Positions 17,989 through 23,251 of a DNA stretch of 24,731 nt are shown in pieces. Source of the stretch: a virus. Taxonomy: Duplodnaviria > Caudoviricetes. Position 1 is the first letter of the stretch. Every line of letters begins with the position of its first letter. The position numbers were made by a program, and so were the translations under genes. The DNA is taken from IMG/VR virus record IMGVR_UViG_3300009435_000050, positions 1-24,731 of that record. The stretch is one strand, 5' to 3'. Below the pieces are notes generated by a model. That model saw only the letters and a list, made by a program, of their open reading frames with translations. It did not search any database and was not told the DNA's origin.

Positions 17989-18417
17989 ATGCCGAAGAGC
18001 AAGCTACATAAGAAGAAGCTAAACCGTGCGTTCCTACCATTACAGGAGAAGTACGTAAAGCGTAACTACTTGAAGTATTACAACCTGTCTATCAGAGATA
18101 TGGTAAAGTACACAGACTTATCTAGAGCTGAATTGGAGTTCTTGATGTTTGCTTATGACCTAGAGTTCTTTGAGATTACTTGGATAGCAGAAGCGTACGG
18201 ACAGAGCCGTAAGAAGCTATACGAGCGTATCGTGCTTCCTCTTAAGAAGAAAGGCTACCTTCAGGAATATCTCGGTGTAGGCAAGGACGGTGAGGACGTT
18301 GACGTACATTTCAACATAAGGCGCAATGCTCAGAAGCTGTCTGTAAGTCATAAAGGTCGCCACAATGTTCAGCGTACCTATCGTAAGATAGAGGGAGAAG
18401 AGGAGATTAGGTACTAA
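17989..18417 (+). CDS. Winged helix-turn-helix (MarR-like) DNA-binding protein
   Basis: LSRAELEFLMF...IAEAYGQSRKKLYERIVLPLKKKGYL...VSHKGR pattern; basic; lone plus-strand gene in this block. Confidence 0.7.
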   Translation: MPKSKLHKKKLNRAFLPLQEKYVKRNYLKYYNLSIRDMVKYTDLSRAELEFLMFAYDLEFFEITWIAEAYGQSRKKLYERIVLPLKKKGYLQEYLGVGKDGEDVDVHFNIRRNAQKLSVSHKGRHNVQRTYRKIEGEEEIRY

Positions 18418-18683: not shown

Positions 18684-18935
18684 TTAGCTTGTAAACCATT
18701 TTTGTATCATTAACACGGGGTAAGCAGGGTAGTATGACACAGCCATAACAGCTAAGTATCTTCCCGCCTTCTCCATTTCGAATATCCTTGTTTCCTTTGC
18801 CTCTTCCTCACTTATGTTGAAGTTCTCCACTTCTTCCTTCGTAGGTGCTCGAAAACATTTGGATGCTATGTGAGCTGCTGCAAGATTGTATATGAATGCT
18901 GCTCCGAATGGTATTGCTAGTATAGTATATATCAT
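18684..18935 (-). CDS. Small membrane protein with two hydrophobic segments
   Basis: ATG just after a terminator and variant box TATATTAG (18939-18946). Confidence 0.65.
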   Translation of the reverse strand: MIYTILAIPFGAAFIYNLAAAHIASKCFRAPTKEEVENFNISEEEAKETRIFEMEKAGRYLAVMAVSYYPAYPVLMIQKWFTS

Positions 18936-18947
18936 ACTCTAATATAC

Positions 18948-18976
18948 AGAAAAACCCCTGCTCACACAAGGGTTCT
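18948..18976 (-). terminator. Intrinsic terminator
   Basis: AACCCTTG-TGTGAG-CAGGGGTT followed by TTTCT. Confidence 0.7.
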
Positions 18977-19043
18977 TCGTAGATACTTATCACCTCCTTT
19001 CTTTAAACGCGTTTAGCGTTCCGAAATTTTACAATTCCGAACT
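18948..19043 (-). ncRNA. Candidate ~95-nt sRNA carrying an extended Shine-Dalgarno sequence
   Basis: Bounded by variant box TATCTTTA (19048-19055) and a terminator. Contains AGAAAGGAGGTGAT with no ATG downstream before the terminator. Confidence 0.4.
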
Positions 19044-19066
19044 ATAGTAAAGATAAGGTATATGTA

Positions 19067-19228
19067 TTAAAAGCTATCCACAAAGGCTGCTACTACAGAC
19101 AGAGCTACTGCTGCAAACACCCCAAAGAATAACGCTGTAGGCAGGCTAGCGCTAACTAGTCCTGCTGTGACGGCTGAACAGGCGATGCCTTGACCGTACT
19201 TTTTCCCGAACTTTTTCATATATTCCAT
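19067..19228 (-). CDS. Small membrane protein (53 aa)
   Basis: Start reassigned to ATG 19228, 4 nt after TATCTTTA (19233-19240). The longer predicted start lies inside the terminator. Confidence 0.65.
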   Translation of the reverse strand: MEYMKKFGKKYGQGIACSAVTAGLVSASLPTALFFGVFAAVALSVVAAFVDSF

Positions 19229-19619: not shown

Positions 19620-19802
19620 CTACAATACTCTTTCTAACGCAAGGATAAGACCTTCTGCACCCGCAACAGCCATAAGAATGTATTTGGTGTAGTCGGCGCT
19701 CTTCGCCTTCTCCCCATCCTTATATCCCTGAAGCGCAGCTTCCGATTTTATCAGTTCCACTTCTAAATCAGTTATACGTTGTTGTAGCTTCTCCTTAGTC
19801 AT
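19620..19802 (-). CDS. Coiled-coil protein with C-terminal hydrophobic helix
   Basis: ATG 4 nt after TATCTTTG (19807-19814). Confidence 0.7.
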   Translation of the reverse strand: MTKEKLQQRITDLEVELIKSEAALQGYKDGEKAKSADYTKYILMAVAGAEGLILALERVL

Positions 19803-19806
19803 AGTA

Positions 19807-19814
19807 CAAAGATA
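19807..19814 (-). promoter_or_regulatory. -7 promoter element TATCTTTG (leaderless context)
   Basis: TAnnTTTG, 4 nt before ATG 19802. Confidence 0.7.
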
Positions 19815-19839
19815 AGCAATTAATACGAGTACACATAGG

Positions 19840-19874
19840 CCTCATAGATAAAACCTATCACCCTCATAGATAAA
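19840..19874. repeat. 13-bp direct repeat CCTCATAGATAAA x2
   Basis: Copies at 19840-19852 and 19862-19874, 22-bp period. Confidence 0.75.
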
Positions 19875-20797
19875 TACAATGAAGATAATTAGTAAAACAG
19901 CCTTATATTTAAAAAATATACCGTACCTTTGCCTCAGTATCATATTCGAGAGTGTGATTCATTTGTCTTTCTCACTCTTGTCTTCTTGTGTTGTTTTCCA
20001 AACACACACACTAATCTTCACAAATGTTTAGGGCTAGTTATATTCGTTACGCACTTGCGTCATCACCTCGTTGATAACAGCCTCTCATAGCACCTTATAA
20101 GAAGTGCTTTCTAACGTCCTATCGGACTGTCTCCCTTATCTACATATTACCATCTCTAGAAAGACGCTCTAACGCGCTCTCATGACACGTCACCCGTCTA
20201 TTGCAAAATGGAAAAAAGGTATCACTGCCTTCAGGTGTCAATTTAAAAAAGTTGTGAGAAATAAATATGGTGGGGATTATATATATACACACACGCTGCG
20301 ACACCGAAACGGAAATGGAATCCGAACCCCCCTCCCCACGACTGCTGATGATTGGGTCAAATACTTTTGGCTTTTTGGGTTCATGGTCTGCTGCACAATG
20401 CGCCCTAGGTTCTAAGCCTTGAATTGAGATGTAGTAAACACGGGGACTATCACGCCCCACCTAAATACAATTCTCTTATCTATCCTGCAACGGGGTTACC
20501 TATAGACTCGTTTAGTCTGTGAATGGGTACACGTTGTTAGTGCCTATGGTTAAAGGGCTTTGTGAATAACGTTCGTACATATACCATTCTAGGCGATGGC
20601 TTTTGGGGGCTCTTTGGCGTGCTTTGGCGTAACCATTCTACGGGGGCTGCAGGCCGATTGGTAGGCTCATTTGGGGGCGTTTTTGGATTGGCCCAAGATG
20701 ACATTTAATGAAATCTGACTTTTGAAAAAATCGGAGCGCTGTGCGCTAGTAATGGTGGGGGTTAAGGGGGATGGCTGTGAATAAGGTTCGGATAAAA

Positions 20798-20817
20798 GGG
20801 TAGGGTTGGGACAAGGG
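20798..20817 (+). other. G-quadruplex-forming motif GGGTAGGGTTGGGACAAGGG
   Basis: Four G3 tracts with loops of 2, 2 and 4 nt. Confidence 0.6.
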
Positions 20818-21093
20818 TAGCTGTATCCCTTGCTGTCACTAGGATTGATTAAAGGGTAGGCTTTGACAAGTAATTCCTAGGACATATCCAAACATTTTAT
20901 ACTCTTTTTTTCATGGTATAAATCACTCAATTGTGGTTATTAGTCTGTAGGTAATTTTACTCAGCGGGGAAAAACTTCATAGGTATTTTCGCTCATTTTG
21001 CATTTGAGGCAAAAAAACTCTGTATCCTAGGCTAGGCTTGGGCTAGAGGGCTCTCCTCGCGCGGGTATCAATAATAGCCGAGAAAGGGGGGTG

Positions 21094-21123
21094 TTGCAGG
21101 TATCGATAATGGTTGTACATTCG
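21094..21123 (+). promoter_or_regulatory. Probable Bacteroidota promoter for the ncRNA/early transcript
   Basis: TTG (21094-21096), 19 nt, TACATTCG (21116-21123); one mismatch to TAnnTTTG with canonical spacing. Confidence 0.5.
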
Positions 21124-21757
21124 GCTTGTCGAACGGGATGAGATATGAGACTCTTGGCGGAGCACATAAGAAGTATCTACCCGACCATCGAGGCCGAAAG
21201 GCTGACAAGCGCCAAACACATTAACAGCGCAGCCGATGTTGAGCAAGCTAACCTAGAGGAACCAACACCCGAGGGATTTAATAGCTGCGACCGACCAACC
21301 ACTCTTCCTCTACTAGGTATGGATGGAACACTGAGAGAGCCACACGGCTTTGCAACCTGCAGACTCAGTAAGTACAGCCTACCGAAAGACAAAGAGCCGA
21401 ACGGATAGAGCGCCTTGGCGCAGGATGCACAACGGAACACGATGAACAGAAAGCGAGCCGCAGCAATGCAGCGAGCAGTAGTAACCGCTAGTACAGATAC
21501 CGCAAGAATCCACAAGTAAGCCCTAGAAACAAGTACGATGCTGTGGTTGCTTTGCCCAAAGGATGATGCTGATTGTATCGATTGAGCATGTAGGATGCGC
21601 ACCAAGGTAGCGCCCCAAAAGACTACACAATCGAGTGCCCCGTAAGACATCAACCAAGTAGGCATTGACCCATTCCCGTGGGGCGCTGAGTGAGGCATTC
21701 GTTACGTAGAGTATGTATGCTGAGACTCACAGCAGGAGCGAGACCTGCCGCCCTACC
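21124..21757 (+). ncRNA. Candidate large structured ncRNA (ROOL/GOLLD-scale), family unassigned
   Basis: No credible ORF. Many nested helices with plus-strand G-U pairs, a GAAA tetraloop, complementary loops, and a 3' tRNA-like module. Confidence 0.6.
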
Positions 21758-21762
21758 TAACC

Positions 21763-21786
21763 CGAGCCAACCACGGCTCACAAATT
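21763..21786 (+). repeat. Leader hairpin motif copy 1 CGAGCCAACCACGGCTCACAAATT
   Basis: Ends 8 nt before ATG 21795. Confidence 0.85.
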
Positions 21787-21794
21787 GAATCGAA

Positions 21795-22127
21795 ATGACA
21801 AACGCTGAAAAATTAATCGCAAGCCTAAGCCCCGTAAACACTAACCTAGATGGCGCACCAATCGTGTGCTTAACGGCAGACCCGTACCTAGGTAAGTTCA
21901 TGGTTAAGCAGCAGTTCAAATTAAGCCTAGGGCAGCCCACAACGCTGACCACATTGCACGACCCCGAAAGCGGCAGACTAATCTTCACGGCACGTGATGA
22001 GGAAAGCCACGATGTTGCGCAGGGCGCTATGTCTAAGCTAGACTACGATTGCATGCGTAAATCGGAAGAGAACGCAAAACTAAGAACAGCATCGGTGGTG
22101 GCTCAATTGGGCTTTCTAGGTTGCTAA
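21795..22127 (+). CDS. Hypothetical early protein
   Basis: ATG with A-rich leader after the conserved motif; 110 aa. Confidence 0.75.
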   Translation: MTNAEKLIASLSPVNTNLDGAPIVCLTADPYLGKFMVKQQFKLSLGQPTTLTTLHDPESGRLIFTARDEESHDVAQGAMSKLDYDCMRKSEENAKLRTASVVAQLGFLGC

Positions 22128-22955: not shown

Positions 22956-23251
22956 AAAACGTGAGAGAATTTATCAACGCAGTGCTAGTTTGCACGATGG
23001 CTCTAGGCCTAGTCTGTTTCCTAAAATATGGTGACATCGAGTTCATATACATCGCACTAGGTTGTGGTAGTGTATTTGCGCTGTCAATCAAGCTAACCCC
23101 TAAGCCAAAGGTTGAAGAGCAGGTCATCCTGCAGGCCGTGCGCCATGGTGACGAGTTCTTCATCAAGAATGTAGTAACGGGTTCACTAAGGCCTAGCAGT
23201 CGCGCTGAGGTCAGCGACCTATGGTGCAAAGGACAAATCGAATTTAAGTAA
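22952..23251 (+). CDS. Membrane protein with two N-terminal TM helices
   Basis: ATGA overlap with the upstream gene; two hydrophobic segments. Confidence 0.7.
   Translation: MKNVREFINAVLVCTMALGLVCFLKYGDIEFIYIALGCGSVFALSIKLTPKPKVEEQVILQAVRHGDEFFIKNVVTGSLRPSSRAEVSDLWCKGQIEFK

Follow-up and report, generated by a model that had tools for sequence, protein, structure and literature searches.

A conserved Shine-Dalgarno unit with no start codon in a tailed phage, and its possible role as an anti-Shine-Dalgarno decoy

A small unit in the genome of a tailed phage carries an extended Shine-Dalgarno (SD) sequence that is followed by a terminator and not by a gene. Its anatomy, its conservation, its complementarity to 16S rRNA and the absence of coding can be read from the sequences, and the unit is conserved among related phages and under strong selection. 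It is likely transcribed as a non-coding RNA of ~95 nt. The best explanation, which has about as much for it as against it, is that of a decoy RNA that would pair with the anti-SD of 16S rRNA, hold the 30S subunit in a dead-end complex and compete with rpsU mRNA.

The unit and its genomic setting

The window, i.e. the whole stretch of 24,731 nt analysed here, carries terminase, portal and GroES-like genes in the order found in Cellulophaga phage phi13:2. Phage records matching the terminase (n = 117) come mostly from phages of Flavobacterium and Cellulophaga; for those in culture, identity is 39% or less. TATCTTTG-type boxes are found upstream of several window genes. From the terminase relatives, these boxes and the SD-less gene starts we infer a host of the Flavobacteriia type. 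A terminase scan of genome contigs gave no relative and no host genome. A scan with the motif gave about 130 matches, the best 120 of which are coding or chance, with no host or prophage copy among the matches listed; many of these come from the sense strand of one Flavobacteriaceae enzyme gene, which we take to be hemF-like.

The other genes appear to lack SDs, as the earlier note on this DNA had remarked. None of 25 window genes is predicted to form a duplex of −10 kcal/mol or better with the 16S tail, and genes with an SD of −13 kcal/mol or better number 0/65 and 0/61 in complete relatives. A bS21 gene (PF01165) is found in none of four related records, three complete relatives included. 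Thus the usual account of phages replacing bS21 is inapplicable here.

Table 1. Coordinates of the unit, its neighbours and look-alike units in other phages
Feature	Position	Strand	Remarks
Promoter-like −7 box TATCTTTA, Bacteroidota TAnnTTTG type	19055–19048	minus	direct read; predicted +1 = 19043
Predicted non-coding RNA, ~95 nt	18949–19043	minus	distance from promoter to terminator; family range ~60–100 nt
Hairpin 1, CGGAAUU/AAUUUCG	19022–19039	minus	dispensable 5′ module
Hairpin 2, GAACGC/GCGUUU, loop variable	19005–19021	minus	includes the palindrome of the earlier note (19015–19004)
Extended Shine-Dalgarno AGAAAGGAGGTGAT	19002–18989	minus	invariant core AAAGGAGGUG = 19000–18991
Second block GUAUCUA	18980–18986	minus	invariant AUCU = 18984–18981
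Intrinsic terminator, 13 pairs	18978–18949	minus	3′ of second block
Promoter-like box TATATTAG of 83-aa gene	18939–18946	minus	3 nt before its ATG; box conserved
Downstream gene, 83 aa, no known family	18684–18935	minus	anchor for relative search
Upstream gene, 53 aa	19067–19228	minus	own box 19240–19233
phi13:2 look-alike	L653:3142–3215 = NC_021803 about 23142–23215	minus	whole-genome scan; also L682
Colly_1 look-alike: AGAAAGGAGG, 6 nt, AUCU, strong hairpin	L680:1501–1560 = MT732450 about 19105–19165		intergenic, genes 37/38; plus strand
phi38:1 start-less AGAAAGGAGGUU, no AUCU	L399:1499–1555 = KC821614 about 42439–42495		gp79 3′ UTR, before terminator
SD (often AGAAAGGAGA) + terminator, AUCU in most	L731, L745, L775, L806, L780 (near 1501–1560); L058:4001; L429:3001; L484:3053		right behind stop of structural/lysis-region gene

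A direct reading of the unit (Table 1) confirms the box, the TTCGGAA pair (19041–19035 and 19025–19019, minus strand), the palindrome, the SD and the terminator that had been described before, as well as the lack of an ATG after the SD. The TA[CT]CTT of the box shows no variation in 17 aligned members. The TAnnTTTG box of Flavobacterium is reported at −12 to −5 (PMC9723704), and thus the +1 of the unit is placed at 19043 and the predicted RNA is ~95 nt long. There is no terminator between the 53-aa gene and the unit, so the unit may double as the 3′ UTR of that gene. Should transcription of the 53-aa gene read through into the unit, the box sequence CCUUAUCUUU (19048–19057) could pair with 18996–19004 in the consensus fold and mask the 5′ half of the SD, which may be a coincidence. 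The 5′ arm of the terminator includes a TTG (18969–18967), 20 nt before the box of the downstream gene.

In the predicted fold, an A-rich single strand leads into AGAAAGGAGGUG, followed by AUAAGUAUCU and the terminator. The fold of a 101-nt stretch has an energy of −32.1 kcal/mol (z = −4.1, equalled by 0/200 shuffles), to which the terminator contributes much. This fold leaves the 5′ half of the SD single-stranded, with an unpaired probability of 0.74–0.93 for AAAGG, and has the 3′ half weakly paired (unpaired probability 0.03–0.30). The exact SD 14-mer occurs once in the whole window. At the gathering threshold, Rfam gives no match in the window or in six related loci; the best weak match, to BTnc231, has 21.7 bits against a threshold of 80.4 and is mainly driven by the terminator. 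No tRNA or tmRNA is found in the window.

Other parts of the window also show features of interest. A gene of 142 aa and no known family (17989–18417, plus strand) is situated opposite the late genes and is conserved in 18/19 relatives, and the L484 locus has a gene resembling it near GroES. A long ORF-poor stretch (~19900–21800), with G-rich tracts at 20334 and 21090, separates the two gene directions and is likely a control or origin region. Contigs from the sole run recorded as RNA (1/7) cover 19806–20310, outside the unit, and overlap this stretch. Boxes situated 3–4 nt before the ATG are found for about 4/26 inspected window genes (minus-strand ATGs at 19802, 19228, 18935 and 6986). These are predicted to be leaderless, and most structural genes have leaders. 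The benefit for leaderless phage mRNAs suggested earlier is, with so few such genes, a weak proposal.

Conservation and complementarity to 16S rRNA

Relatives were sought among viral and metagenome contigs by aligning the downstream 83-aa protein, without selecting for the motif. The 33 rows obtained represent 21 distinct upstream regions, the window's own record among them, and with that record excluded the unit is present in 20/20 distinct relatives. It is immediately 5′ of the 83-aa gene in 18/21 regions. In the other three (L116, L117, L118) it is found ~850 nt further upstream, beyond an inserted 271-aa gene. The inserted gene (L118:474–1289, also in L116 and L117) is outer-membrane beta-barrel-like with a weak Pfam match (PF13505), and the region around the unit is one in which small genes vary and insertions are found.

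Two of the 21 regions are one element, one copy being truncated, which leaves 20 scored sequences that share ancestry and are not 20 independent events. All 10 columns of AAAGGAGGUG and all four of AUCU are unchanged in these, as compared with fourfold-degenerate columns of two neighbour genes, of which 0/7 and 1/13 (1/20 in total) are invariant. The conserved complement amounts to 10–12 nt, i.e. the 10-nt core and two purines; the final AT of the 14-mer varies. A covariance model run over 63 sources added one divergent member, L022, which reads AAAAAGGAGGGAAGAACUAUCU; the UG is lost, and AAAGGAGG, AUCU and the 8-nt spacing are kept. Counting L022, AUCU is present in 21/21 members. The 10-mer is single-copy in each of two complete 62–63 kb relatives, and three more distant relatives (TerL ~60%) show no 10-mer and no covariance-model match. 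Conservation of the SD in homologues had been set as a test in the earlier note, and the SD is kept in them.

The other parts of the unit differ in how they are conserved. In the terminator, 10/13 pairs vary yet stay paired, two of them on both sides. Hairpin 1 has seven pairs that are kept in 98.8% of cells and never vary (12 members); pairs of hairpin 1 and of the SD hairpin being invariant, that alignment gives no covariation support for either. The sequence of hairpin 2 differs between members, e.g. GCGC-UUC-GCGC in the L119 group, and neither the DNA palindrome nor the doubled TTCGGAA noted earlier is conserved as such. A 14-nt block within the 5′ module is unchanged in 14 aligned members. 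The 5′ hairpins are missing in L125 and L022. These minimal members are bounded by an upstream terminator and retain the leader, SD, AUCU and terminator, and thus have nothing else in the RNA to stabilise or control. In L010 and L011 one hairpin replaces the 5′ hairpins and the two-hairpin module is shifted upstream. The displaced module (L010:7059–7197; L011 upstream of 609) stands alone, with a terminator of its own and a compensatory G-C to C-G change, which suggests a second small RNA function.

The 16S tails compared here number 21 and come from 30 Flavobacteriales loci. The exact complement of the invariant core, CACCUCCUUU, is present in 17/21. The earlier note had described a 14-nt match to the 16S tail; this holds for the 10-nt core, as a 12-nt complement fits 4/21 tails exactly and the full 14 nt fits 0/21. 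The next tail base beyond CACCUCCUUU is C or U, and the opposing phage base is G in 17/20 and A in 3/20. The two bases 5′ of the core are always purines, able to pair with the CU or UU of the tail. The window SD gives a predicted duplex of −20.6 kcal/mol with one Flavobacteriales tail, and the 20 members, each taken with the best-fitting of three tails, range from −17.8 to −22.2 kcal/mol, below the −13 kcal/mol that serves as the rpsU-type criterion of SD pairing. Among 31 parsed Flavobacteriales rpsU leaders, the six that carry GGAGG show −17.6 to −19.9 kcal/mol, and the pairing strength of the unit equals that of these. No other site in the window or in either complete genome matches the tail as well as the unit does, with runners-up within 0.2–0.7 kcal/mol, and the unit alone among terminator-like sites has such a match upstream (1/9, 1/21 and 1/13). 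Pairing of the predicted RNA with the 16S tail, as proposed earlier, is thus well supported by complementarity; trapping of 30S subunits that lack bS21 is what we infer from it. No pairing is seen in this family between bases 5′ of the SD and the 16S precursor trailer, which leaves the suggested effect on 16S maturation unsupported.

The AUCU block, situated 6–8 nt 3′ of GGAGG, was overlooked in the earlier note. It is complementary to 16S positions 790–793, in a loop present in 20/21 16S loci, and the GUAUCUA of the window to 789–795. Complementarity reaches 794 in 18/21 members, 795 in 15/21 and 789 in 16/21, and never 787. The 790-loop match was noticed post hoc, and a random 7-mer has an 8.7% chance of finding its complement somewhere in 16S. 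Outside the clade, G at AUC−2 is found in 0/10 families, so the pairing does not extend to 795 there. The 790 loop lies on the mRNA path, beside the SD helix. It is described as exposed and as taking part in subunit association (PMC4613259). Three readings would fit the AUCU sequence, namely a fold-back on the SD, a near-cognate P-site codon and a complement of the 790 loop. The fold-back hairpin (AGGUG/UAUCU) is improbable as the sole reason for AUCU, being weak at −1.0 to −4.6 kcal/mol, with no member strengthening it to ACCU and 0/5 pairs varying.

Look-alike units in other phages

Cellulophaga phage phi13:2 has an unannotated stand-alone look-alike consisting of a TATATTTA box, a 17-nt leader, AGAAAGGAG, AUCU-AAA and a terminator. 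It is near-identical in phi18:3, phi19:3 and phi46:3. A second AAAGGAG...ATCT is situated ~100 nt upstream of it in phi13:2. The start-less SD of phi38:1 (Table 1) is also found in phi40:1 and the Calle phages; six putative non-coding RNAs are reported in the phi38:1 paper, and RNA-seq of phi38:1 exists. Pattern scans show SD-terminator modules that directly follow stop codons in low-GC phages whose genes are not SD-led. One of these, L806, reads AUG-AUC-UAU-UAA at its module, and the AGAAAGGAGA form would fit an AUCUCC tail variant (3/21 hosts).

Other loci recovered are of a different kind. L061, L070, L077, L080, L081 and L095 (4001, 904, 2368 etc.) show AGAAAGGAGGUGAAAGUAUCU and a small hairpin on the strand opposite the 3′ end of a gene labelled by eye as holin-like. 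These phages are Firmicutes-type in appearance and were found with a pattern that requires the motif; two that were tested have no Rfam match. In a marine phage family of 25 loci (L430 family, e.g. L491:3001–3053), the stop of the SSB gene overlaps AGAAAGGAGGUGUUCUCCU, a self-folding SD, and a terminator follows. This family was dropped as support, as its genes use SDs and the SD folds on itself.

Counts over families give no clear excess for the general class of an SD before a terminator (10/70 families vs. 4/50 with a reversed core). The combination of SD, AUCU and terminator is found in 10/81 families, which exceeds neither control (p = 0.32 and 0.72), and AUCU behind the SD in unselected terminator families in 2/9 vs. 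2/61 (p = 0.08). In 14 annotated phage genomes, AUCU is found at 3/27 non-coding AAAGGAG sites vs. 0/60 control cores (p = 0.028), with one site having prompted the test and another overlapping a promoter-like box. A promoter-plus-SD scan (64 rows) gave no further stand-alone family. A wider class of SD-AUCU-hairpin modules is, from these sequence comparisons, a lead.

A proposed ribosome decoy and its alternatives

In Bacteroidota the anti-SD is reported to be sequestered by bS21, bS18 and bS6, and in Flavobacteriales rpsU to carry an extended SD (PMC7797042, PMC9976891). McNutt 2023 (PMC9976891) describes extended-SD messages as forming tRNA-independent complexes even on wild-type ribosomes and bS21-free ribosomes as favouring rpsU, and proposes the bS21 feedback as a counter-defence. 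The decoy could work as follows. The unpaired AAAGG would serve as a toehold for the 16S tail, which would open the weak AGGUG/UAUCU hairpin and form a helix of 10–12 bp, most readily on subunits that lack bS21 and have a free tail. The 30S subunit would then be parked with AUC in the P site, a dead end because AUC and not AUG is at the start-codon position. Competition with rpsU mRNA could blunt the bS21 feedback of the host, or host initiation might be lowered more broadly. A strong SD is found in just 6/31 sampled rpsU leaders, so the link to rpsU fails if the host belongs to the others.

Known systems share some of these features. The extended SD of rpsU in Flavobacteriales (PMC7797042, PMC9976891) is described with a tail complement of 10–12 nt, and the unit resembles it in pairing strength and in having a pseudo-start at the spacing of its start codon. 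However, the unit is phage-encoded, has no AUG and no bS21 or bS18 frame, has a terminator straight behind, and would use up bS21-free subunits instead of supplying them. SprF1 of Staphylococcus aureus is reported as an ncRNA that associates with ribosomes through a purine-rich stretch and interferes with the loading of mRNA at initiation by competition (PMC8938821). The unit is likewise a predicted small RNA with a purine-rich stretch, its ribosome binding being a prediction. SprF1, however, is the antitoxin of a type I pair and has a toxin gene antisense to it; the unit has no such gene opposite (no overlapping plus-strand ORF of at least 50 aa and no conserved frame behind the SD), has no sequence or Rfam link to SprF1, and belongs to phages of a host lineage that normally hides the anti-SD. 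STAB-SD of Bacillus thuringiensis cry3A (PMC4113751) is likewise an SD lacking a start codon, described as recruiting 30S, but it is situated in a 5′ UTR and shields the downstream coding region in cis, and the unit has a terminator downstream and its own promoter-like box. By the criteria of these systems, the unit is not an rpsU leader, a STAB-SD or a type I antitoxin; by analogy, the decoy would act like SprF1 and borrow the rpsU signal. Bacteroidota phages that encode bS21 (Chen 2022, PMC9723584) are reported to involve the 30S platform at the site proposed for the decoy, and to do so from near terminase and portal. Those phages are ~300 kb with a protein gene, whereas the phages of the unit are 62–63 kb, lack bS21 and would have an RNA instead. 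A literature search found no phage anti-SD decoy RNA, most subscription papers being outside its reach.

An extended form of the decoy would make the unit one of a class of two-point antisense RNAs in Bacteroidota phages, with the SD anchoring the 16S tail and AUCU pairing with the helix-24 790 loop and blocking P-site loading and subunit joining. The module would recur in unrelated phages (phi13:2, Colly_1) as stand-alone RNAs or as 3′ ends of late mRNAs. We regard this form as rather unlikely. No natural RNA pairing with the 16S 787–795 loop was found in the literature search. Tapprich and Hill reportedly used antisense DNA probes to 787–795 in 1986. Such a probe is laboratory DNA; the second block of the unit would target the same exposed loop with a match of 5–8 nt that was noticed post hoc.

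The modules right behind stop codons in other phages count against the decoy in that they equally suit a role in cis. The 30S footprint reaches about +16. A 30S subunit loaded on the SD, its P site occupied by AUC, would cover the 5′ arm of the terminator (from +7) and so cause read-through, or would cap and protect the 3′ end of the upstream mRNA. The short and near-constant distance from AUC to the stem, the likely second role of the unit as 3′ UTR of the 53-aa gene and the similar modules between stop codon and terminator in phi38:1, L731, L745, L775, L806, L780 and L058 all favour this. However, a conserved promoter box with a −33 TTG belongs to the downstream gene itself, which is replaceable by insertion (L116–118), and in L125, L022 and phi13:2 the unit has a promoter-like box of its own and a leader of merely 17 nt. 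STAB-SD is described as shielding RNA 3′ of itself (PMC4113751), where the unit has only a terminator. A ribosome-controlled attenuator would be expected to have a conserved leader peptide or an antiterminator; no peptide is conserved, and the consensus fold has no antiterminator. We consider the cis role unlikely. A non-AUG micro-gene, in which the SD drives initiation at AUC and a start-stop or very short frame cycles ribosomes and drains fMet-tRNA or release factors, is a distinctly unlikely alternative when the frames are compared. AUC does occupy the start-codon spacing, 8, 7 or 6 nt behind GGAGG in 15, 2 and 3 members (6–10 nt in rpsU leaders with GGAGG), and the next codon is a stop in 9/20, with UAG, UGA and UAA all used; phi13:2 and L058 likewise show AUC-UAA. 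Yet the other 11/20 have six-codon frames or no stop before the transcript end, no peptide behind the SD is conserved in 20 members, and AUG, which would better suit a start-stop element, is absent behind the SD in 21 members. The GTG at 18993, named earlier as a possible start, is directly followed by TAA in L015 and is missing in L022; neither GTG nor AUC opens a conserved frame, and this test of the earlier note does not refute its proposal.

The target may also be something other than the ribosome. It could be an RNA that has a CCUCC tract and pairs in antisense, or a protein that binds RNA by recognising GGA motifs and the 5′ hairpins. In keeping with such a target, the 5′ module has an invariant 14-nt block and persists on its own in L010 and L011, where it shows a compensatory change. 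However, every base of the invariant SD block fits the 16S tail core, and the variation in its flank tracks the tail; the 5′ module is absent in L125 and L022 and no Rfam family reaches the gathering score. Such a target is therefore quite improbable. The unit might also be the remnant of a ribosome-binding site whose gene was lost, or a site read at the DNA level, retained either by chance or as the target of a DNA-binding protein, which would agree with its locus in a variable slot of small genes. This is highly improbable given that nearby neutral sites are scrambled (1/20 invariant) with SD and AUCU intact, that terminator pairs covary and that genes of these phages have no strong SDs before them.

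The decoy remains the reading we prefer. Bacteroidota ribosomes hide the anti-SD and use it little beyond rpsU, and the unit is a selected perfect complement to it without a gene. If the decoy is real, it would be a phage RNA that attacks the ribosome directly, a means of taking over the host that is absent from the literature found, and the proposal of McNutt that the bS21 feedback is a counter-defence would become directly testable. The look-alikes in phi13:2 (Cellulophaga baltica) and Colly_1 (Maribacter forsetii) offer cultured systems. The unit would be a small natural probe for the bS21-free subpopulation of ribosomes.
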